From positions 1 through 58,002 of the forward strand of contig JAZOLL010000060.1 of assembly GCA_045653105.1 (NCBI GenBank): a stretch of DNA of 58,002 nt, given 5' to 3'. The notes under the pieces were generated by a model. The model had not been told where the DNA came from, made no database searches, and worked only from the letters and a program-made list of their open reading frames with translations. Origin of the DNA: Eubacteriales bacterium (lineage in GTDB: Bacteria; Bacillota; Clostridia; Oscillospirales; CAG-272). Shown here one piece after another: positions 1,639 through 46,842 of the stretch (position 1 is the stretch's first letter; every line of letters begins with the position of its first letter). A program made the position numbers and the translations under genes.

Positions 1639-2490
1639 ATGAAAACAGTTATAGGAATAGATATCGGTGGCTCAACCACCAAAATAGTCGGCGCGAAAAA
1701 AAGTGATGACGGCAACGTCACTCTCATAGATCCTATATTCGTAAAGGCGACAGACGCGATAACCTCGGTCTATGGCGCGTTCGGAAAATTCACAATGCAA
1801 AATTCTATCTCGCTTGACGAGATAGACGCGGTCAAAATGACGGGTGTTGGCGCGTCCTTCATAGATAAGCCGATATACTCCCTGCCCTGCGAAAAGGTCT
1901 CCGAGTTCTCCTCGGTGGCGCTTGGCGGACTTCATCTCTCGGGTCTTGACGAGGCGATAGTCGTGAGCATGGGAACGGGTACGGCATTCGTTCACGCGAA
2001 AAAGACGGCAGACGGCACATCGATAAAGTACCTCGGCGGCACGGGTGTCGGCGGCGGAACACTTATAGGTCTGTCGAAAAAGATGATCGGTGTTGACACG
2101 GTCGAGCACCTTGAAGCTCTCTGTGAGGACGGAAATCTCGACAACGTGGATCTTCGCATCAAGGATATCTCTGCCGACAACAATTTTCAAATAAACGAGG
2201 AGCTCACCGCGGCAAACTTCGGCAAGCTCTCTGATATGGCGACTAAAAACGACCTCGCGCTCGGCATCGCGAACCTCGTTGCCGAGACGATAATGATGCT
2301 CGGTGTCTTTGCTGCCCGAAATTACGGACTCAAAAACGTGGTCCTTACAGGAAACCTCACCTCGATCTCCGCTATAACCAGCGTATTCTCAAAGTTCGAG
2401 GAGCTCTTTGACGTGAAATTCATTCTCCCCGAAAACGCCCAGTTTGCTACCGTCATCGGCGCAGCACTCGACGGTATATCAAGGGTATAA
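1639..2490 (+). CDS. coaW: Type II pantothenate kinase
   Basis: GIDIGGSTTK, SMGTGT, GGTGVGGGT and AANFGK motifs; AAAGGA RBS before ATG 1639. Confidence 0.85.
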   Translation: MKTVIGIDIGGSTTKIVGAKKSDDGNVTLIDPIFVKATDAITSVYGAFGKFTMQNSISLDEIDAVKMTGVGASFIDKPIYSLPCEKVSEFSSVALGGLHLSGLDEAIVVSMGTGTAFVHAKKTADGTSIKYLGGTGVGGGTLIGLSKKMIGVDTVEHLEALCEDGNLDNVDLRIKDISADNNFQINEELTAANFGKLSDMATKNDLALGIANLVAETIMMLGVFAARNYGLKNVVLTGNLTSISAITSVFSKFEELFDVKFILPENAQFATVIGAALDGISRV

Positions 2491-2504
2491 AGCAAAAAAC
2501 GCGC

Positions 2505-2538
2505 AAAAAAGCCGCCCACTCGGGCGGCTTTTCTTTTT
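2505..2538. terminator. Bidirectional intrinsic terminator
   Basis: AAAAAAGCCGCCC-actc-GGGCGGCTTTT between convergent genes. Confidence 0.8.
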
Positions 2539-2545
2539 GTCGGTC

Positions 2546-3706
2546 TCAAAGACCTATATTCTCCAGGAATGCTCGCGTATTTGCTGCTTCCTCTTTCGAT
2601 ATATCGTTGTTATATTGCAGCTCTCTTGTCGTGCGTCTCAAATGACCGCAGAATATCAGTTTACACCATCTTCGTACCTGCATAAACGGGGTAAGCCAGC
2701 GGTGCTTTTGAAGAATGGGATAATGGAACTTGATCACGTCGTAGGGCAGAAAGATCTTTGATAATACATACCCTAATCTTCCGCCTTGCTTTTGCTGCTG
2801 TACGGCAATTCGATTTTCGTTTGTCCCATATACGCCACCGCGCAAAATATAATTCTGCATTTGCTGCGTAATATCAGTATGCTCAGCGTTGCCAAACCAT
2901 ATTTCCGAAAGCAACTCGGATCGTTGTGCAAAAGTTAGAAGCTTGCCTTTTGCAAGTAAGCTGTTACGTTTGTCTTTGTCAAAGGAAACCTTGTGATCGA
3001 GTATCCAAAGGTCAAGAAACGTACGAACACCGCATCCGCCGTTTTCAAAGTGCTTTGCCATGTGCGCGATATGATAAAAGTAAAACATCTCATCGGGCAT
3101 TTCGAACCAATACTCAAAGCCCTCGCGAGCACGCGCAGACTCCCAAACAGCCTTTAGCACCTCTGAGGATTCCTTCGCAAGCCCCTCCTCGACAAGGTCG
3201 TAATGCAGTTCAACATGAATCTTTGTGGGCGCGAAAAGTGAAACGTCATGCGAGCCCTTGCCCTCAAAAGTGTATCCATACTCCTCGATCAATATCGACT
3301 TAGCTCGATCAAGGTCCTCTTCTCTCACAAGAATATCGATATCACAGCTTGTCCTCATCCACGGCTCAGGGTAGAGCTTGCGGATCACCGAGCCCTTGAG
3401 CGGGAGAAAGCGTATCTGCGCCTTTTCGAGCGCGGCACAGAGATTTTCATATTCATATTGCAGCATCTCATATCGATATACCGCTTTGAATATCTCGGTT
3501 TCAAGCTGACCGGCATTCTCATCAAGCAAATCATTATTTTTCAGTCCAAGCGCGAGCAGATGCAGAACGTCGTGCTGCTTTGCGATCTTTGTAAGCTGCG
3601 GCAACATTTCCGTGTCATAGAGCGATTTTTCCTCATCAGAAAGAAGAGTGCCACAAATATTCGAGCTTAGCAATGCGAACATTATCTTACTTGTCTTATC
3701 ACTCAT
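2546..3706 (-). CDS. Nucleotidyltransferase family protein (NTP_transf_5-like)
   Basis: LPLKG...YP...R..CDIDILV, VELH and H..KH motifs. Confidence 0.8.
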   Translation of the reverse strand: MSDKTSKIMFALLSSNICGTLLSDEEKSLYDTEMLPQLTKIAKQHDVLHLLALGLKNNDLLDENAGQLETEIFKAVYRYEMLQYEYENLCAALEKAQIRFLPLKGSVIRKLYPEPWMRTSCDIDILVREEDLDRAKSILIEEYGYTFEGKGSHDVSLFAPTKIHVELHYDLVEEGLAKESSEVLKAVWESARAREGFEYWFEMPDEMFYFYHIAHMAKHFENGGCGVRTFLDLWILDHKVSFDKDKRNSLLAKGKLLTFAQRSELLSEIWFGNAEHTDITQQMQNYILRGGVYGTNENRIAVQQQKQGGRLGYVLSKIFLPYDVIKFHYPILQKHRWLTPFMQVRRWCKLIFCGHLRRTTRELQYNNDISKEEAANTRAFLENIGL

Positions 3707-3775
3707 AGCAATCTTCCTTTCCCGAAAAAGTCTTACCTCTTTATCACAAATCTATGGCTGAGCTGAAGCCGGTCA

Positions 3776-4669
3776 TCACGCTCCTGCGTAAAGGGGGTCT
3801 ATTTTTTTGAGTTCGTTATATGTGTCAATTTCTACGATATCATCAAAGCGGCATTCTCTGATGGATACCTGATAATTTTCTTTTTTGTATACGAGCGGAA
3901 CCTGCTCCCAATAGCGCTCCTTACCGCCGGGAGCGTTGTATACCTCCGCGATATCGCGCTCAAGATTTTTACCCGCATCGGCATCCCAATAAGATATTCC
4001 AACCAACTGATGACAGTTTTTTCCGCCAACGCACTCCTCGATGATGATTCCGTTTTCATTGGTGTATAAGCACCAATCGTCCGAGGTTTCCACGGGAATA
4101 CCGAGGAAATTCGAGCTGTACTCGTATTTGCGAATAAGCTTCGGGTTAGATAATACGAGGTCTGCCTCAAGCGCATAAGCATTGCTGAACAAATCGCGAG
4201 CGCACATAGCCGACGAGATATTGTTTGCCTCGTTGTATAGCGGGTTGTCGATAAACTTGATGTTCGGGTACTTATAAAGCAACTGGTCGAACTGTTCCCC
4301 AAGATATCCGCGAATAATGTATATCTCCTCGATGCCTGCGGCAACTATAGCGTCAAGCAGGGTGTCTATCATTCGCGTTCCGTGTACTCTGATAAGGGGC
4401 TTGGGCGTATTAAACGTAAGCGGGATCATTCTCGAGCCAAAGCCTGCCGCCAAGAATACTGCGCGCTTTACACGATACGGCTCAAGGGCTTCGATTCCCT
4501 TCTCCGTAATTCTGCCCTCTTCCACAAGACCGTCAGCCACCAGCTCTTTCATAATGTCACTGACTGCCTCGGCAGAAAGTCCAAGCGCCTCGGCGATCTC
4601 TCCTTGAGTAGATGCCTTTTTTTCTTCATCCAAAAGAAGAATCATTAATTCAAATGTGTTTTTTGTCAT
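3776..4669 (-). CDS. licC: Winged-HTH fused LicC-like CTP:phosphocholine cytidylyltransferase
   Basis: N-terminal TQGEIAEALGLS HTH; LAAGFGSR, PKPL, NNISS and EIDT motifs. Confidence 0.75.
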   Translation of the reverse strand: MTKNTFELMILLLDEEKKASTQGEIAEALGLSAEAVSDIMKELVADGLVEEGRITEKGIEALEPYRVKRAVFLAAGFGSRMIPLTFNTPKPLIRVHGTRMIDTLLDAIVAAGIEEIYIIRGYLGEQFDQLLYKYPNIKFIDNPLYNEANNISSAMCARDLFSNAYALEADLVLSNPKLIRKYEYSSNFLGIPVETSDDWCLYTNENGIIIEECVGGKNCHQLVGISYWDADAGKNLERDIAEVYNAPGGKERYWEQVPLVYKKENYQVSIRECRFDDIVEIDTYNELKKIDPLYAGA

Positions 4670-39636: not shown

Positions 39637-40914
39637 TTACTTTATAACGTCAAAGCCAAGGTACTTTCTGAGAACCTCGGGAACTACGACAGAGCCGTCT
39701 GCCTGCTGGTTCTGCTCAACGAGCGCGGGAAGGATTCGGCTGGTCGCGAGACCCGAGCCGTTGAGTGTGTGGAGATACTCGATCTTGCCGTTATCTCTCT
39801 TTACTCTCATCATGCCGCGGCGAGCCTGATAATCTCTAGCGTTGGATACAGAGGATACCTCCTTGTAGCCGTCCATCGAGGGGATGTTGATCTCGATGTC
39901 GTAGGTTCTCGCCATAGATGCCGAGCAGTCCTCTGCCGCGAGCTTAACTGTTCTGAAGTGGAAGCCGAGACCCTTTACGAGCTGCTCCGCGCAGCCTACG
40001 AGCTCCTCAAACGCCTCGTCGCTCTTCTCGGGGAGCGTGTACTGTACCATTTCAACCTTGTTGAACTGATGTCCGCGCACCATTCCGCGCTCGTCAGCTC
40101 TGTAGCTTCCTGCCTCACGTCTGAAGCAAGGTGTGTAGCTTATATATTTCTTCGGGAGATCTGCCTCTGTGAGGATCTCGTCTCTGTGGAGAGATACGAG
40201 AGCGGTCTCCGCTGTGGGAAGCATAAAGCGGCGTCTTTCATCCTCTGCGGTCTCGAGCCAGTAAACGTCGTCAGCAAACTTCGGGAACTGTCCCGCGGTG
40301 AGTCCGCACTCGTAGCCGAGCATGTGAGGAACGAGCATAAGCTCAAAGCCGTTAGCGATATGTGTATCGATAAAGTAGTTGAGAAGCGCCCACTCAAGAC
40401 GAGCACCCACTCCGCTGTATATCCAGAATCCTGCGCCGGAGAGCTTTGCGCCGCGCTTGTAGTCGATAAGACCGAGGTCTGTGCAAAGATCTACGTGGTT
40501 CTTGGGCTCAAAGTCAAACTGCTTCGGTTCTCCGAAGTATCGGAGAGGCTGGTTGTTTTCCTTGCCGCCAGCGAGAAGGTCTGTATCCGGAAGATTGGGA
40601 AGACCGAGCATGAGAGTGTTGAACTTTGTCTCAACCTCCTTGAGCTTTTCCTCCGCAGCCTTTACCTCTGCGCCCATCTCCTTCATCTTTGCAAAGATCT
40701 CCGCGAGGTCGCGGCCCTCCTTTTTGTACTGAGGAATGAGCTTGTTTACTTTGTTCTGCTCTGCCTTTATTGTTTCGCTGGAGGAAATGAGAGCTCTTCT
40801 CTCTGCGTCAAGCGCGAGAATTTCTGCGATCTCCTCTTTTGCGTCCTTGCCCTTTTTCGCGAGTCTTTCAATGACCTCGTCGGGGTTTTCCTTTATATAT
40901 CTGATATCAAGCAT
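39637..40914 (-). CDS. serS: Serine--tRNA ligase
   Basis: MLDIRYI, PTAE, CFRREAG, HQFNKVE, EVSSVSN and HTLNGSGLA motifs. Confidence 0.98.
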   Translation of the reverse strand: MLDIRYIKENPDEVIERLAKKGKDAKEEIAEILALDAERRALISSSETIKAEQNKVNKLIPQYKKEGRDLAEIFAKMKEMGAEVKAAEEKLKEVETKFNTLMLGLPNLPDTDLLAGGKENNQPLRYFGEPKQFDFEPKNHVDLCTDLGLIDYKRGAKLSGAGFWIYSGVGARLEWALLNYFIDTHIANGFELMLVPHMLGYECGLTAGQFPKFADDVYWLETAEDERRRFMLPTAETALVSLHRDEILTEADLPKKYISYTPCFRREAGSYRADERGMVRGHQFNKVEMVQYTLPEKSDEAFEELVGCAEQLVKGLGFHFRTVKLAAEDCSASMARTYDIEINIPSMDGYKEVSSVSNARDYQARRGMMRVKRDNGKIEYLHTLNGSGLATSRILPALVEQNQQADGSVVVPEVLRKYLGFDVIK

Positions 40915-40944: not shown

Positions 40945-41835
40945 TTATTTTTCTTCGGTATCGGAAAAAATATTGTTTCCGCAAAGATTTGTGAGAAGCG
41001 CCTCAAGATCCTCGTCGCTGTCGTATGTGAGCTCAACGACACGTCTCTTTGAGGAGCGTGATATTCTCACCTTTCTGCCGAGAGCCGACATCGCGCGACG
41101 CTCAAGCTCCTTCATGTGTACCTTTATCTGCGGATGGACCTTTGCCTCCTCGTCCTCCTCCGCGCGAGCGTTCATGCGCTTGACCGCGTACTCGACCTCG
41201 CGGACTGAAAGTCCCTTGGAAACTGTGCGCTCCGCAAGCTTTATTATCTGCTCGTCGTCCTCAAGACCGAGGAGCGCTCTCGCGTGGCCTGCGGTGATGT
41301 CGCCTGCCTTGAGCATCTGGAGCACCTCGTCGGGAAGCTCGAGAAGTCGGAGCATATTCGCAACTGCGGGACGGCTCTTGCCGACCTGCTTTGCCACCTG
41401 CTCCTGTGTGAGACCGAATTTTTCGATAAGCGCGCCGTATCCGAACGCTTCTTCAACGGGGTTGAGATCCTCACGCTGGATATTCTCGATAAGCGCTACC
41501 TGAGCCGCCTTGAGCTCGTCACCGTCAAACACGATAGCGGGAATTTCTGTAAGTCCTGCCATTTTTGACGCTCTCCAACGGCGCTCGCCCGCGATTATCT
41601 CGTAAAATCCGGGAGCTGTAGCGTTTTCGCGCACGATTATAGGCTGAAGCACACCGTAAGCCGCGATAGAATCCGCAAGGACCTCAAGCGACTCGCGGTC
41701 AAAGGTCTTTCTCGGCTGATCGCGTCTGGGCTCTATATCAGAGATCCTGAGTGTCTGACCCGTGCCTTTTTCAAATGTATTGTCGTCGTAAATATCGTAA
41801 AAGCCTCTGCCGAGACCTCCAAGTTTCTTTGCCAT
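40945..41835 (-). CDS. parB: Chromosome partitioning protein ParB/Spo0J
   Basis: QPRK.F, AGERRWRA, ENIQREDL, HTH KSRPAVANMLRLL and GHARALL motifs. Confidence 0.95.
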   Translation of the reverse strand: MAKKLGGLGRGFYDIYDDNTFEKGTGQTLRISDIEPRRDQPRKTFDRESLEVLADSIAAYGVLQPIIVRENATAPGFYEIIAGERRWRASKMAGLTEIPAIVFDGDELKAAQVALIENIQREDLNPVEEAFGYGALIEKFGLTQEQVAKQVGKSRPAVANMLRLLELPDEVLQMLKAGDITAGHARALLGLEDDEQIIKLAERTVSKGLSVREVEYAVKRMNARAEEDEEAKVHPQIKVHMKELERRAMSALGRKVRISRSSKRRVVELTYDSDEDLEALLTNLCGNNIFSDTEEK

Positions 41836-41845
41836 ATCTATCTCC

Positions 41846-42037
41846 TTACTTCTTGTAGTTAGATTTTATGCTCTTATTTCTGATTATCTCGGGGTAAATT
41901 TCAGAGGTGGATGTCATAGGAACCTTTTTTGTTTCGGTTCTGATGACTACCTTTGCCGTGCTTTTTCTTATCTCGGGAGAGTTGTCCTCGAGAAGATCTC
42001 CGAGTCCTCTGCCAAGACCTGATGTTTTTTTCTGCAT
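41846..42037 (-). CDS. Small protein consisting of a ParB-like N-terminal LGRGL motif plus a basic tail (63 aa)
   Basis: GGAGG RBS 9 nt before ATG 42037 (alternative GTG 42043); MQKKTSGLGRGLGDLLEDN; the stop codon overlaps the parB SD (TAAGGAG). Confidence 0.75.
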   Translation of the reverse strand: MQKKTSGLGRGLGDLLEDNSPEIRKSTAKVVIRTETKKVPMTSTSEIYPEIIRNKSIKSNYKK

Positions 42038-42055
42038 TTTCACACGCCTCCGATC

Positions 42056-42817
42056 TTATATTCTCGTGACAAGCTCTTTTGCGACCTCGATATACTCCTT
42101 AGCGCCCTTAGAGCTCTTGTCGTGGTAGAATGCGGGTCTGCCGAAGCCGGGTGCCTCGGTGAGCTTGACGTTTCTGGATATCTTTGTCTCGAAAAGCTTG
42201 TCGTCATAGTGCTTCTTAAGCTCTGCCATGACCTGCATGGAGAGAAGCAAACGCGCGTTGTACATAGTGATAAGTATTCCGCAAACATCGAGATCGGGGT
42301 TGTAGAGACGCTTTATGCGGTTTATCGTGATGAGAAGCTGTGAAAGTCCCTCAAGCGCGTAGAATTCGCACTGCATGGGCACGATAACTCCGTCACTTGC
42401 GGTGAACGCGTTGATCGTGAGCATTCCGAGAGAAGGAGGACAGTCGATGAGTATGTAGTCATAGACGTCTTTTACGGGCTCAAGCGCGTTTTTCATGCGC
42501 TTTTCGGTGTCCTCAAACTCGTAAAGGTCAAATTCTGCGCTGGAGAGCGCGGTGTTTGTGGGGATCACCGAGAGATTTTCAAAGGGAGTCTCAACGATTA
42601 TCTCCTCAACGGGGAGTCTGCCCGAGAGAAGCTCTCTCGTGCCGCCCTTAAGCCCCTTCTTTGCAATTCCTACTCCGCTTGTAGTATTACCCTGGGGGTC
42701 GAGGTCAACTATAAGAACTTTTTTGCCGAGAATACCGAGAGAAGCCGCGATATTAACGCAGGACGTTGTCTTACCAACGCCGCCCTTCTGGTTGGCAAAA
42801 GAAATGATTTTTCCCAT
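42056..42817 (-). CDS. parA: Chromosome partitioning ATPase ParA/Soj
   Basis: NQKGGVGKTT, DLDPQGN, DCPPSLG and QCEFYALEGL motifs. Confidence 0.97.
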   Translation of the reverse strand: MGKIISFANQKGGVGKTTSCVNIAASLGILGKKVLIVDLDPQGNTTSGVGIAKKGLKGGTRELLSGRLPVEEIIVETPFENLSVIPTNTALSSAEFDLYEFEDTEKRMKNALEPVKDVYDYILIDCPPSLGMLTINAFTASDGVIVPMQCEFYALEGLSQLLITINRIKRLYNPDLDVCGILITMYNARLLLSMQVMAELKKHYDDKLFETKISRNVKLTEAPGFGRPAFYHDKSSKGAKEYIEVAKELVTRI

Positions 42818-42880: not shown

Positions 42881-42909
42881 ATTATATCACACGCGCGCGA
42901 GGAATGCAA
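42881..42909 (-). promoter_or_regulatory. sigma-A promoter of parA
   Basis: Minus strand TTGCAT-N17-TATAAT with extended TG. Confidence 0.7.
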
Positions 42910-43004
42910 TAGCTTTTCTGCATATTTTTCGCGTTTTTAGAGAGATTTTAGGTGTTTTCATGAAAAAACCGCCCTTTTGGGGCGGATCTTGGTCTCTGCG
43001 GCGA

Positions 43005-43138
43005 TGTTTCACGTGAAACAAGAGCGGCTTTGAGGCGGGCCGTAAACCTCTGTTTTACGTGAAACAAGCAAAGGGGTGAGCGTGAATGTTTCACGTGAAA
43101 CAAGCAAAGAGTTCAGCGTAAATGTTTCACGTGAAACG
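43005..43138. promoter_or_regulatory. parS: Cluster of four parS centromere sites
   Basis: TGTTTCACGTGAAACA at 43005 and 43087; 1-mismatch copies at 43051 and 43123. Confidence 0.93.
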
Positions 43139-43184
43139 GTGGACTGCAAAGCAAAGGCGGGCGGAAACTTTTTGGCGCTATATA

Positions 43185-44033
43185 CTACTTTCGAAGCACC
43201 ACGCGCACCTCTACGCTGCGTTCTCGGGTGATGACCTCACAGGTCGCCTCTTGGCCTTGTTTCTTGAGCGCGTCGATGCGCTTTTGAATGTTAGATATGA
43301 ACTGACGTGCCTTTTTCTCTGCGGAAAAGACCTCTTTTTCTGCTTTTTCTACCTCTTTTGCGCTATTTTTCTGCTTTTCGAGGATACGGTCTATGTATTG
43401 CTCGGTGTTCAGAACGTTCATAGATCCCTCGCAAATATAGCGGATCGCCTCGGCTCGCGCCTCGTGAGAGTCAAGCCGCAGGAGAGCTCGCGCGTGTCTC
43501 TCGGAGAGGTCGTTCTCAAGGATCGCACGCTGCTCGGCATCCGAAAGCCGCAAAAGACGTATCTTGTTTGCCACCGCGGACTGACTGAGCGACATTTTCC
43601 TTGCCACCTCGTCCTGCGTGAGTCCGTGGTTTTCTATCAGCTTTTTGAATCCGTATGCCTGCTCAAACATATTCAGATCCTTTCGCAAGAGGTTTTCGAT
43701 TATCGCAAGCTCTGCCGAGGTCTGCTCGTCCGCCTCGATAACTATGCACGGTACGGTGAAATATCCGAGCATTCTTGCCGCGCGAAGTCTTCGCTCTCCC
43801 GCCACGAGCTCGTATGTATAGATGTCGTCGCTATCCGATCTCCTTACCGTCAGCGGCTGGATTATCCCGTATCGCCTTATCGAATCCGCGAGTCTTATGA
43901 TAGAATTGTTGTCAAAATCCGCCCTCGGCTGCGCGCGGTTAGCTCTGATATCGTCTGTCTTTACCTGGATCACCTGAGAAGAGACGGGATACTCCTCGAG
44001 GTTTCTTCTCCTGAAATACTTAAAATCCGTCAT
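43185..44033 (-). CDS. noc: Noc-like ParB family protein
   Basis: QPR, AGERRLRA, ENL.R.DL and SQSAVANKIRLL motifs; lies between rsmG and parA; AAGGAG RBS favours ATG 44033. Confidence 0.8.
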   Translation of the reverse strand: MTDFKYFRRRNLEEYPVSSQVIQVKTDDIRANRAQPRADFDNNSIIRLADSIRRYGIIQPLTVRRSDSDDIYTYELVAGERRLRAARMLGYFTVPCIVIEADEQTSAELAIIENLLRKDLNMFEQAYGFKKLIENHGLTQDEVARKMSLSQSAVANKIRLLRLSDAEQRAILENDLSERHARALLRLDSHEARAEAIRYICEGSMNVLNTEQYIDRILEKQKNSAKEVEKAEKEVFSAEKKARQFISNIQKRIDALKKQGQEATCEVITRERSVEVRVVLRK

Positions 44034-44064
44034 TTTTATCTCCTTTTCCTTAAATATCTCCCAA

Positions 44065-44080
44065 AGTTTCACGTGAAACA
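44065..44080. promoter_or_regulatory. parS: parS site upstream of noc
   Basis: AGTTTCACGTGAAACA (1 mismatch). Confidence 0.85.
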
Positions 44081-44211
44081 TTTGGTAATAACATTCTACT
44101 ACGGGGGAAATAAAAAATCTGTCAGAATAAGGGGGTGGAAAATAAAGGACTTCTGCGGTGTTTTGTAAGCTCTTGTCGGTATTTCTTGCCGAGCAAAAGA
44201 AAAAACCGCTA

Positions 44212-44946
44212 TTAAAGCGGTTTTTTCGATATTTTGGCGAAAGCCCTCGGATATATTTTCGGGGTTGTCTCGACCTTTTTTGTTATTATCAAACGGCGGC
44301 TCTCAAAATTCTCGCCGTTTTCTGTCAGATCTGCACGAACTATCTCGGAATCTGCTCCGCCGCAAAGCTTGATGGCACGGAGCGCGCCGGAGAGCTCCTC
44401 CTCGCCTTTCTGACCCTTCATTGAAATGAAAAGTCCGCCTATCTTTACAAAGCCAAGGCAAAGCTCGGAGAGAGTTGAAAGCTCGGCTACCGCGCGAGCA
44501 AGCGCGATATCATATGCCTCGCGGTTACCCGCGTTCACGTACTCCTCAGCTCTTGCCGCAACAGCCCTGACGTTTGCAAGACCGAGCTGTGCTGCCGCGC
44601 TCTCTACGTATCTTATTCTCTTTGCCGTCGCGTCAAGCGCGGTGATATCAAGGTCGGGGCGCATTATAGCGAGCGGGAGAGTAGGGAAGCCTGCTCCGCA
44701 GCCGATGTCTATTATACGCGCGCCTTCAGGCAGATATTTCGATACTGTGAGCGAATCTATATAGTGTTTGAGTAAAATTTGTGAACAATTTGTTATCGTG
44801 GTGAGGTTAAGGCTCTTATTTACCTCAAGCATAAGCTCGGTCAGAGCGTGGAGCGAGGATATCTGCTCGTCGCTCGGCATCTCTACAAGCTCGCCGTTGA
44901 GGGCGAAAAGTCGCTTCGCCTCGGCATAGAATTCTTCGTATATCAT
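44212..44946 (-). CDS. rsmG: 16S rRNA m7G527 methyltransferase
   Basis: NLT.I, KHYIDS, DIGCGAGFP, RAEE, ARAVA and YPR motifs. Confidence 0.95.
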   Translation of the reverse strand: MIYEEFYAEAKRLFALNGELVEMPSDEQISSLHALTELMLEVNKSLNLTTITNCSQILLKHYIDSLTVSKYLPEGARIIDIGCGAGFPTLPLAIMRPDLDITALDATAKRIRYVESAAAQLGLANVRAVAARAEEYVNAGNREAYDIALARAVAELSTLSELCLGFVKIGGLFISMKGQKGEEELSGALRAIKLCGGADSEIVRADLTENGENFESRRLIITKKVETTPKIYPRAFAKISKKPL

Positions 44947-44958
44947 AAAGACCTCTTT

Positions 44959-46815
44959 TTAGTGTATTCCAAGGTAGATCAGAAGCACGGTAATGTCCGC
45001 GGGGTTAACTCCGCTTATTCTCGATGCCTGACCGACGCTTGCGGGACGGATCTTGTCAAGCTTTTGAGCCGCCTCAAGGCGAAGTCCCTTTATAGCCTTG
45101 TAATCTATATCCGCAGGGAGCTTTTTCGACTCAAGTCTTGCCTGTCGCTCTACCTCGGAGCGCTGGCGCTTGATATATCCCTCGTATTTTACCGCGGTCT
45201 CCACCGTGAGCGCTTCTCTCATAGAAAGGGCAGGGCGCGCGGGGTCTATCTCGGCAAGCGCCTCATAGGTCACAGAGGGTCTGCGCAAGAGATCCGCAAG
45301 AGACGCGCCGCCCGAGAGCGGTGTCTGACCGAGAGATTCGAGCAAGGGGTTGGCTTTTGTGGGGGAAAGGAAAGTAGAGACAAGTCTCTTTATCTCGTTT
45401 TCTATGTTATTTTGCTTGGTTTTGAAGGCTTCGTAGCGCTCGTCGTCGATAAGACCTATTCTTCTGCCGATGGGGGTAAGTCTTGCGTCTGCATTGTCCT
45501 GACGGAGAAGAAGCCTGTATTCAGAGCGCGAGGTCATCATTCTGTAGGGCTCGTTAGTGCCCTTGGTGACAAGGTCGTCGATGAGCGTTCCGATATAACT
45601 CTCGGATCTCTCAAGTATCATCGGCGGCTCGCCAAGCAGACTCAGAGCGGCATTGATACCCGCAACAAGACCCTGCGCGGCAGCCTCCTCATATCCCGAG
45701 GTCCCGTTGAACTGCCCCGCGCCGTAAAGTCCTGAGATCCCTTTAAATTCAAGGGTCGGGAGCATCTGCGTGGGGTCGGCGCAGTCGTATTCTATCGCGT
45801 ACGCGTAGCGCATGATCTGCGCGTTTTCAAAGCCGTCAAGCGTTTTCAGCATTCTGTGCTGAACGTCGACGGGCAGGGAAGTGGAGAAGCCCTGAATGTA
45901 CATCTCGTCGGTGTGCGCTCCAACGGGCTCGACAAAAAGCTGATGTCTCTCTTTGTCTCTAAACCTGACGACCTTGTCCTCGATAGAGGGACAGTATCTA
46001 GGGCCTGTGCCGTGGATATGGCCCGAATACATCGCGCTTCGCGTGATATTTTCATGAATGAGCTCGTGTGTTTTCGCGTTTGTGTATACAACGTGGCAGG
46101 GCGTCTGCTCGAGCGAGTCGAAAAATGACTCATCGGTCAGAGCAGAGTATGGGATTATCCTCTCCTCGCCGTCCTGACGCTCGAGAGAATCAAGGTCTAT
46201 CGTGCTCTTTAGCACTCTCGCGGGAGTTCCCGTCTTGAATCGCATAAGGGTTACACCGATGCGCTCAAGGGCCGCCGAGAGTCCGCGAGCGGCAAGCATT
46301 CCGTCAGGTCCTGCGGAGTAGTTGACGTCGCCTACGAATATCTTTGATTCGAGGTATGTTCCGGTGCATATCACCGCCGCCTCGCACTCCCACACCTCGC
46401 CGAGCGAGGTCGTGACGCTCTTTATTTTGCCCTCCTCTACCGAAATATCCACTATCTCGGCCTGAACGAGGCGCAAATTCGGGGTTTTTTCGAGGATTTG
46501 CTTGATTATTTTCTGATATTCGCGTCTGTCTGCCTGGATTCGCTTTGAGTGGACTGCCGCGCCCTTGCCGAGGTTGAGGGTCCTTGACTGAAGCGTGCAG
46601 AGGTCTGCTGCGCGACCCATCTCGCCGCCGAGCGCGTCTATTTCATACACAAGATGGCCCTTGCCCGTGCCTCCGATCGAGGGATTGCAGGGCATATTGG
46701 CTATCGCGTCAAGTGACATCGTGAAAAGGACAGTGTCAATACCAAGGCGCGCGGATGCCAGCGCGGCTTCAACTCCCGCGTGTCCCGCTCCTATTATCGC
46801 TATTCTTGTTTTCAT
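44959..46815 (-). CDS. mnmG: tRNA uridine-5-carboxymethylaminomethyl enzyme MnmG/GidA
   Basis: GAGHAG.EAA, MPCNPSIGG, GPRYCPSIEDK and GTSGYEEAAAQG motifs. Confidence 0.97.
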   Translation of the reverse strand: MKTRIAIIGAGHAGVEAALASARLGIDTVLFTMSLDAIANMPCNPSIGGTGKGHLVYEIDALGGEMGRAADLCTLQSRTLNLGKGAAVHSKRIQADRREYQKIIKQILEKTPNLRLVQAEIVDISVEEGKIKSVTTSLGEVWECEAAVICTGTYLESKIFVGDVNYSAGPDGMLAARGLSAALERIGVTLMRFKTGTPARVLKSTIDLDSLERQDGEERIIPYSALTDESFFDSLEQTPCHVVYTNAKTHELIHENITRSAMYSGHIHGTGPRYCPSIEDKVVRFRDKERHQLFVEPVGAHTDEMYIQGFSTSLPVDVQHRMLKTLDGFENAQIMRYAYAIEYDCADPTQMLPTLEFKGISGLYGAGQFNGTSGYEEAAAQGLVAGINAALSLLGEPPMILERSESYIGTLIDDLVTKGTNEPYRMMTSRSEYRLLLRQDNADARLTPIGRRIGLIDDERYEAFKTKQNNIENEIKRLVSTFLSPTKANPLLESLGQTPLSGGASLADLLRRPSVTYEALAEIDPARPALSMREALTVETAVKYEGYIKRQRSEVERQARLESKKLPADIDYKAIKGLRLEAAQKLDKIRPASVGQASRISGVNPADITVLLIYLGIH

Positions 46816-46842
46816 CGGCAAAACACCTCCTTCTAACCCTAC

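Follow-up and report, generated by a model that had tools for sequence, protein, structure and literature searches.

A conserved small gene between parA and parB in a clade of Clostridia encodes a candidate stand-alone ParA-binding peptide

In the 58,002-nucleotide (nt) stretch of DNA analyzed here (the window; contig JAZOLL010000060.1 of assembly GCA_045653105.1, from a Eubacteriales bacterium of the CAG-272 lineage), the partition genes parA (soj) and parB (spo0J) enclose a third, small gene, whose product of 63 amino acids (aa) begins with a peptide motif of the kind found at the N-terminus of ParB (Table 1). A first-pass annotation of this DNA had placed a 63-aa open reading frame (ORF) in the parA-parB gap, with a GGAGG of its own and a stop that overlaps the Shine-Dalgarno sequence of parB, and the coordinates bear out this layout: the small ORF starts 18 nt from the parA stop, and its TAA (41846-41848) overlaps the AAGGAG of parB (41842-47). 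The consensus scan found no terminator-like hairpin between parA, the small gene and parB, so that, by inference, the three genes look like a single transcription unit.

Table 1. Positions of the par genes, their signals and motifs, and the neighboring features in the window
Feature	Position	Strand	Basis
parA/soj, Walker-type partition ATPase, 253 aa	42056-42817	minus	PF13614 AAA_31 E 3e-65; CbiA E 1.5e-24
GGAGG Shine-Dalgarno sequence of the small gene, 9 nt before its ATG	42047..42051	minus	sequence reading
Small gene, 63 aa, ATG start; alternative GTG at 42043	41846..42037	minus	ORF
Residues 7-19 of the small protein, GLGRGLGDLLEDN, canonical ParA-binding motif by sequence	41981..42019	minus	
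Residues 46-63 of the small protein, EIYPEIIRNKSIKSNYKK, second conserved motif	41849..41902	minus	alignments
AAGGAG Shine-Dalgarno sequence of parB, 6 nt before the parB ATG	41842..41847	minus	sequence reading
parB/spo0J, 296 aa	40945..41835	minus	ParB_N E 2e-31; HTH_ParB E 5e-39
Divergent N-terminal motif of ParB, GLGRGFYDIYDDN, ParB residues 7-19	41779-41817	minus	
Terminator-like hairpin, 5' of parA	42969..42985	minus	consensus scan
Four parS sites, clustered within 134 bp, between the Noc-like gene and the parA unit	43005..43138 (43005, 43051, 43087, 43123)		pattern search
Fifth parS site, at the annotated start of the Noc-like gene	44065-44080		pattern search
Noc-like ParB paralogue	43185-44081	minus	
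rsmG	44212-44946	minus	
mnmG	44959-46821	minus	
serS	39637-40914	minus	

On the comparisons made, the small ORF is a genuine and conserved third member of the par operon, kept by purifying selection, and not a recent neutral duplication of the parB 5' end. Of 24 other genomes of the genus, 19 have matches to its product, as do two further genomes added later. Completeness is 68-83% in the five genomes that gave none; four of them lack a parA match too, and the parA of the fifth runs off its contig. Since none of the five offers an assembled parA-parB junction, all 22 junctions assembled in the genus, the window's included, are positive, each with an intact, ATG-started ORF of 61-148 aa, and a GGAGG-like purine run lies within 25 nt 5' of the orthologous ATG at each of the 20 genus loci examined. 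The first-pass annotation had proposed a third par gene and had named absence or breakage of the ORF in close relatives as what would speak against it; neither was seen at these junctions. Selection was estimated by the Nei-Gojobori method (NG86) as the ratio of nonsynonymous to synonymous substitution rates (dN/dS), for which only two pairs of loci have an unsaturated dS, the other five printed pairs being saturated or undefined for the small gene. The ratio is 0.10 for L006/L007 (dS 0.52) and 0.21 for L008/L010 (dS 0.80); in the same pairs it is 0.016 and 0.056 for parA and 0.027 and 0.11 for parB. The invariant L, G, R, D and N positions of GLGRGLGDLLEDN are written with two to four different synonymous codons across 20 species, indicating that conservation acts on the protein level.

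These data bear directly on the possibility that the ORF has no protein function, being either a decaying partial duplication of parB or an upstream ORF that is translated merely to couple or regulate the expression of parB, which we consider very improbable. In favor of such a view, the ORF is short, evolves fast and shares homology with the 5' end of parB, and in the window its stop overlaps the parB Shine-Dalgarno sequence. It is, however, largely refuted by the conservation data: the ORF is intact at all 22 junctions, in species that have diverged to saturation at synonymous sites, the dN/dS values are 0.10-0.21, and two motifs are conserved in amino acids with varied codons. Tight coupling is not conserved either, since the small-gene stop and the parB ATG lie 10-142 nt apart in the genus and about 2 kb apart in another gene-carrying genus (g198, see below). 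A fusion with parB by read-through or frameshifting was rejected as well, the spacing (10, 12, 11, 85, 50 nt and so on) keeping no constant frame.

The homology between the small protein and ParB is confined to their starts. BLASTP aligns residues 1-22 of the one with residues 1-22 of the other, 12 of the 22 being identical (E 3e-6 in a single comparison), and a profile-profile comparison (hhalign) gives 97.8% probability and an E value of 8e-13 over those 22 columns only. The resemblance of the two starts had been noticed in the first-pass annotation, together with the lack of a CTPase or helix-turn-helix (HTH) domain in the small protein, and both statements hold in the searches. No Pfam family scores above threshold (best E 0.19) and no NCBIfam family matches; the small protein is not a member of the ParB/Spo0J partition proteins (TIGR00180; PF02195 + PF17762), whose ParB_N CTPase fold (Box I-III, GERRxRA) was not found in it by Pfam, by NCBIfam or by hhalign, whose alignment covers residues 1-22 only; and the parS-binding HTH and C-terminal dimerization domains were likewise not found, there being no HTH_ParB match and the chain modelled by AlphaFold2 (AF2) being disordered. 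Lacking the CTPase fold, the HTH and the dimerization domain, the small protein should be unable by itself to load at parS or to form a clamp.

What it retains is the ParA-binding peptide. The alignments divide the small protein into four parts, the first of which is the near-invariant N-terminal motif M-x-K-K-x-S-G-L-G-R-G-L-G-[DE]-L-L-[ED]-D-N-x-P. Among 38 homologues S6, G7, L8, G9, R10, G11, L12, G13, D14, L15, L16 and N19 are invariant; among 20 sequences of the genus LGRGL (residues 8-12) occurs in 18, and L8, G9, R10 and L12 are invariant in all 20. The published definition of the ParA-binding motif, (L|F|I)G[K|R]G(L|F|I) (PMC12704722, in excerpt), covers the LGRGL of residues 8-12. In ParB/Spo0J the LG(R/K)GL peptide has the same motif at the same distance from the N-terminus as in the small protein, but there it sits on the ParB body; the small protein has no such body and is encoded directly after parA. 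Its sole sequence match in the PDB is the N-terminus of Thermus Spo0J (1vz0), to which it is nearly identical, in addition to its 22-residue homology to the neighboring ParB. A peptide of the Thermus Spo0J is said to have been used in experiments.

Behind the N-terminal motif follow a short V-V-x-R stretch and a linker that has neither conserved length nor conserved composition: some lineages have a short, basic linker and others a long, acidic one. The linker sets the total length, which is 63 aa in the window and 61-160 aa in relatives. The last 18 or so residues form a second conserved motif, the C-motif [ST]-x-L-[YF]-E-x-x-P-K-N-[RK]-S-[VLI]-K-[AS]-x-[FY]-[KR]. The description of this region in the first-pass annotation as a basic, low-complexity tail is therefore right in one respect, the small protein having a net charge of +7, and falls short in the other, since the tail ends in a conserved motif and is not merely of low complexity. 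The C-motif differs by genus, reading KNRSVKANFKK in g1 and SYVxKTPRRSGS in g142. Its derivation from the ParB segment 'EPRRDQPRKTF' was considered and dropped, the profile of the C-tail giving 0.6% probability against full-length ParB in hhalign. An AF2 model built on a 65-sequence alignment (predicted local distance difference test score, pLDDT, 66.6; predicted template-modelling score, pTM, 0.17) contains helices only at residues 12-17 and 57-61; as modelled, the small protein is a disordered chain that carries two short helical motifs.

The distribution of the gene was followed in protein databases and in genomes. A word-indexed search returned 39 small proteins of 61-105 aa, one of which bears the source name 'hypothetical protein' and comes from a Ruminococcaceae metagenome-assembled genome. 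A profile search of 1.84 billion representative proteins gave 70 matches at E <= 1e-3, 69 of them 39-160 aa long and the remaining one a weak match of 577 aa; proteins of ParB size (about 280-380 aa) were not among the 70. In the ESM Atlas the matches were all unnamed clusters of Bacillota, apart from a weak lead to one cluster with 18% ParB_N. Among 200 other genomes of the order 38 matched, all through the N-terminus of a 281-374-aa frame, that is, ParB itself, and in 11 such loci of the order parA directly adjoins parB with gaps of roughly 0-85 nt. A scan of the family (150 genomes, 97 genera) found small-frame matches in four genera only: the window's own, g142, g151 and g198. In g142 the small ORF is present in both genomes (70 aa), and its ParA is 67-68% identical to the window's; in g151 an ORF of 145 aa is placed between parA and parB; in g198 an ORF of 75 aa lies about 400 nt behind parA, with parB a further 2 kb or so away, past a repeat-rich spacer. 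The position of the small gene behind parA is kept at all 22 loci of the genus and likewise in g142, g151 and g198. By these comparisons the gene is older than the genus, is limited to a small clade and travels with parA. Its most likely source is the 5' end of parB, in an ancestor shared by several genera of this family of Clostridia.

Some of the more distant forms depart from the layout in the window. In the g198 locus (L043, G302:C7; about 1660-4370), the small gene and parB are separated by some 2 kb without a convincing gene, where overlapping ORFs with repetitive translations suggest tandem repeats, judging from the translations. The ParA of g151 (L042, G336:C145; 1993-2817) has an N-terminal extension of about 20 residues, which brings it to 274 aa, and in the 145-aa ORF next to it the LGRGL motif is not N-terminal and stands about 30 residues from the start. 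A similar placement, some 15-35 residues in, is seen in P0099 and P0101-P0104, divergent forms from the databases; three of these five begin with MIIRK.

The N-terminal motif of ParB has itself changed in the lineages that carry the small gene. It was compared in 20 ParBs of the genus, to which two further ones were added, and in 10 outgroup ParBs. Every one of the 10 outgroup ParBs with a resolved start, none of which is accompanied by a small gene, reads GLG[RK]GL and then x-x-[LIF][LF]. The 22 genus ParBs all read GLGR-x-F-Y-x-I-[FYML]; the Arg is followed by G in 14 of them, and by S, D, T or Q in the other 8. The published ParA-binding motif has G after the Arg or Lys (PMC12704722, in excerpt). 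In the other gene-carrying genera the ParB motif is ALGRDFFNIL (g142), GLGRLMDDLL (g151) or GLGRGLYEIF (g198). By sequence, then, the ancestral canonical peptide (KKxSGLGRGLGDLLEDN) is kept by the small protein, and the peptide of ParB has moved to a new form that is itself conserved; the contrast drawn in the first-pass annotation between a canonical LGRGL..LL in the small protein and a divergent motif in the ParB of the same genome is upheld by the alignments. A canonical small protein beside a shifted ParB motif fits specialization after a partial duplication. That annotation did not contain the co-occurring shift of the ParB motif, the second conserved motif or the spread over several genera.

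The likely partner of such a peptide is ParA. Soj is the only ParA/MinD-type positioning ATPase found by an AAA_31 search in the 80%-complete genome, in which the same search found no MinD; the other AAA_31 matches, on contigs C65 and C41 of G000 (L045, L046), are judged by sequence to be tyrosine autokinase-like and Mrp/NBP35-like. In the window's ParA the stretch next to Walker B reads DCPPSLGML, of which D125, C126, P127, P128 and L130 are invariant in 30 ParAs from inside and outside the clade, and S129, G131 and L133 nearly so. By its position, and not by alignment, this loop would be part of the peptide-binding pocket and equivalent to L150-L152 of M. xanthus. Work on ParB peptides indicates what a free peptide might do there: ParB1-20 binds to the dimer of ParA (Kd in the range of 1-100 uM) and raises the affinity of ParA for DNA, and the 20-mer hardly stimulates the ATPase alone, doing so strongly together with non-specific DNA; closed ParB clamps, which juxtapose two peptides, activate far better than open ones (PMC12462528, in excerpt). 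A complex prediction for two ParA and two small-protein chains with ATP and Mg, run without controls, reached a best score of 0.30 against a mark of 0.32 and speaks neither for nor against an interaction.

We propose that the small, disordered protein acts in trans on ParA, binding its pocket and modulating its turnover without dependence on parS loading, with the C-motif as a docking element, a reading that draws on sequence conservation and to which we assign a probability of roughly 0.6. The N-terminal peptide would insert into the ParB pocket at the interface of the DNA-bound ParA-ATP dimer and would act there in trans, most probably by stimulating ATP hydrolysis, as free ParB1-20 does with DNA. 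The resulting pool of activator would be independent of the parS-loaded ParB clamp and could tune the amount of ParA dimer that stays on the nucleoid, and ParB with its changed peptide would keep the centromere-bound contact. The C-motif would concentrate the small protein at a docking partner, for which the membrane, ParB, ParA and DNA are candidates. Activation is preferred over blocking in this proposal on account of the Arg that is invariant in the small protein.

Several points weigh against the proposal. The small protein evolves, by sequence identity, much faster than its neighbors (across the genus the identity to the window copy is 36-62%, compared with 77-87% for ParA and 69-84% for ParB), and its C-motif differs between genera, so that one shared target is not assured. 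The co-occurrence of the gene with the ParB shift rests on one or very few evolutionary events and does not amount to statistical evidence, and ParB retains a conserved, Arg-containing motif of its own, so that the small protein is not needed to supply one. Strong activation moreover requires the peptide pair juxtaposed by the clamp, which implies that a free monomer may be a weak activator unless it is concentrated or dimerized; the free small protein might instead act as a competitor.

The superiority of clamp-juxtaposed peptides over free ones (PMC12462528, in excerpt) would also suit a split-ParB adaptor, that is, a small protein that docks through its C-motif on ParB or the partition complex and supplies the canonical peptide in trans to ParB clamps with a drifted peptide of their own, so that activation stays centromere-bound. 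The second conserved motif at the far end of a flexible linker, the alteration of ParB's own motif in the gene-carrying lineages and the overlap of the small-gene stop with the parB Shine-Dalgarno sequence in the window are all compatible with such an arrangement. The altered ParB motif is, however, itself conserved, its Arg and hydrophobic positions being kept; the C-motif has no similarity to any ParB segment; and in g198 the small gene remains with parA, about 2 kb from parB. We judge an adaptor to be unlikely.

Terminal amphipathic helices target MinD and Noc to the membrane, and the cationic amphipathic tail of the long forms of the small protein may resemble them: RSLKALF[KR]SYK has a hydrophobic moment of 0.7-0.9 and a charge of +3/+4, compared with a moment of 0.26 +/- 0.13 for control 11-mers. 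The window's own tail (NKSIKSNYKK, charge +5) is, however, only weakly amphipathic, its moment of 0.24 being no higher than that of the controls, and membrane binding by the tail is purely conjectural. The long-form tails and the terminal helix of the AF2 model nevertheless suggest another way in which the small protein might work, as a competitive anti-activator or membrane sequestrator, which blocks the ParB pocket without productive activation or holds ParA at the membrane through its C-terminal helix; it would then limit ParB-ParA tethering rather than accelerate turnover. The weakness of free monomeric peptides as activators (PMC12462528, in excerpt) is consistent with this. The presence of the catalytically relevant Arg in 20 of 20 genus sequences favors activation over mere blocking, and the tail of the window copy offers nothing above control; we see little probability in a blocking or sequestering role.

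The nearest precedent for the arrangement proposed here, activation in trans by a separately encoded peptide, is ParZ of Borrelia, the product of a separate gene directly 3' of parA that has a ParB-like N-terminal peptide controlling ParA and is proposed to stem from the N-terminal coding sequence of ParB (PMC9712426, in excerpt). According to the same source, ParZ is a centromere-binding, DNA-spreading protein, whereas the small protein is tiny and disordered and has no recognizable DNA-binding fold; and Borrelia ParB has lost the peptide, whereas ParB here keeps an altered one. The comparison with ParZ was made by description and not by sequence. PadC and KorB also carry a ParA-binding motif (PMC12704722, in excerpt). 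PomX/PomY provide a precedent for two activators acting on one ATPase. These proteins share with the small protein a short, basic N-terminal peptide, which in them acts on an ATPase of the ParA/MinD type, and each also has a structured cargo, scaffold or DNA-binding part. In function the small protein would belong, if anywhere, among such carriers of ParA-activating peptides. McdB and ParG, further carriers of ParA/MinD-activating peptides, compare in the same two ways. In contrast, the small-protein family has only a linker and a terminal motif of about 15 residues; no folded domain that could serve as a localizing module was found by Pfam, NCBIfam or AF2, and what is present is the conserved C-terminal motif. 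We found no description of a stand-alone LGRGL mini-protein in the literature, although supplements of the cited papers might list such ORFs, and the gene can to this extent be called previously undescribed, as the first-pass annotation had supposed of the three-component system.

In models of ParABS systems the ParA-activating peptide is assumed to act only from the parS-loaded ParB clamp, and recent work confines activation to the partition complex by clamp closure. A separate, conserved copy of the peptide in the operon, together with a re-tuned peptide on ParB, would be a natural experiment that separates activation from tethering. To judge from sequence, the small gene probably acts on ParA independently of the centromere, and if so it could reveal a new way of setting ParA/Soj turnover and hence nucleoid occupancy. 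More tentatively, the duplication of the ParB peptide onto a free, disordered mini-protein that keeps the ancestral high-fidelity form may have created, by way of the C-terminal docking motif, a second control point of ParA/Soj, either parS-independent or docked in trans, with ParB's own peptide retuned and the two copies in different roles; we regard this fuller account as possible but doubtful. If true, these gut and rumen Clostridia would possess a natural four-part system of ParA, ParB, parS and mini-activator, where ParA turnover is genetically uncoupled from centromere tethering, and such a mini-protein would surprise specialists. In Firmicutes it might bear on other outputs of Soj too. 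Any connection of Soj with DnaA or sporulation takes its basis from the biology of Bacillus, and a link of the small protein to either would, by that analogy, be speculation; the 80%-complete genome does contain a Spo0A gene (Spo0A_C match E 2e-41, contig C12). The proteins of this family are named at most 'hypothetical protein', which shows that filters against short ORFs conceal components even of the most closely studied bacterial machinery.

A direct repeat, TTATGAACA-nn-TTATGAACA, was seen in three loci (L008 1441-1460, L009 468-487 and L033 1471-1490), apparently within the spacer that separates the small gene from parB; the 10-nt spacer of the window lacks it. Its unit we take to be one mismatch from the DnaA-box consensus. 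Such DnaA-box-like repeats were rejected as a general feature of the locus, since they occur in only 3 of 43 loci, with two copies each.

Upstream of the parA unit, palindromic parS matches to TGTTNCACGTGAAACA with at most one mismatch amount to five sites in the window, or 10 strand-wise matches compared with 0.13 expected. As ATGTTTCACGTGAAA reads M-F-H-V-K, spurious ORF starts 'MFHVK' arise at the parS sites, and the short ORFs at 42887-43149 are affected by such starts. An LGRGL motif is lacking in the Noc-like ParB paralogue. Against TIGR04285 (Noc), whose cut-off is 315 bits, each of the two ParB paralogues reaches 246. The listed start of the Noc-like gene (44081) coincides with a parS site, and its real start may be a downstream ATG (MTDFKYF...).

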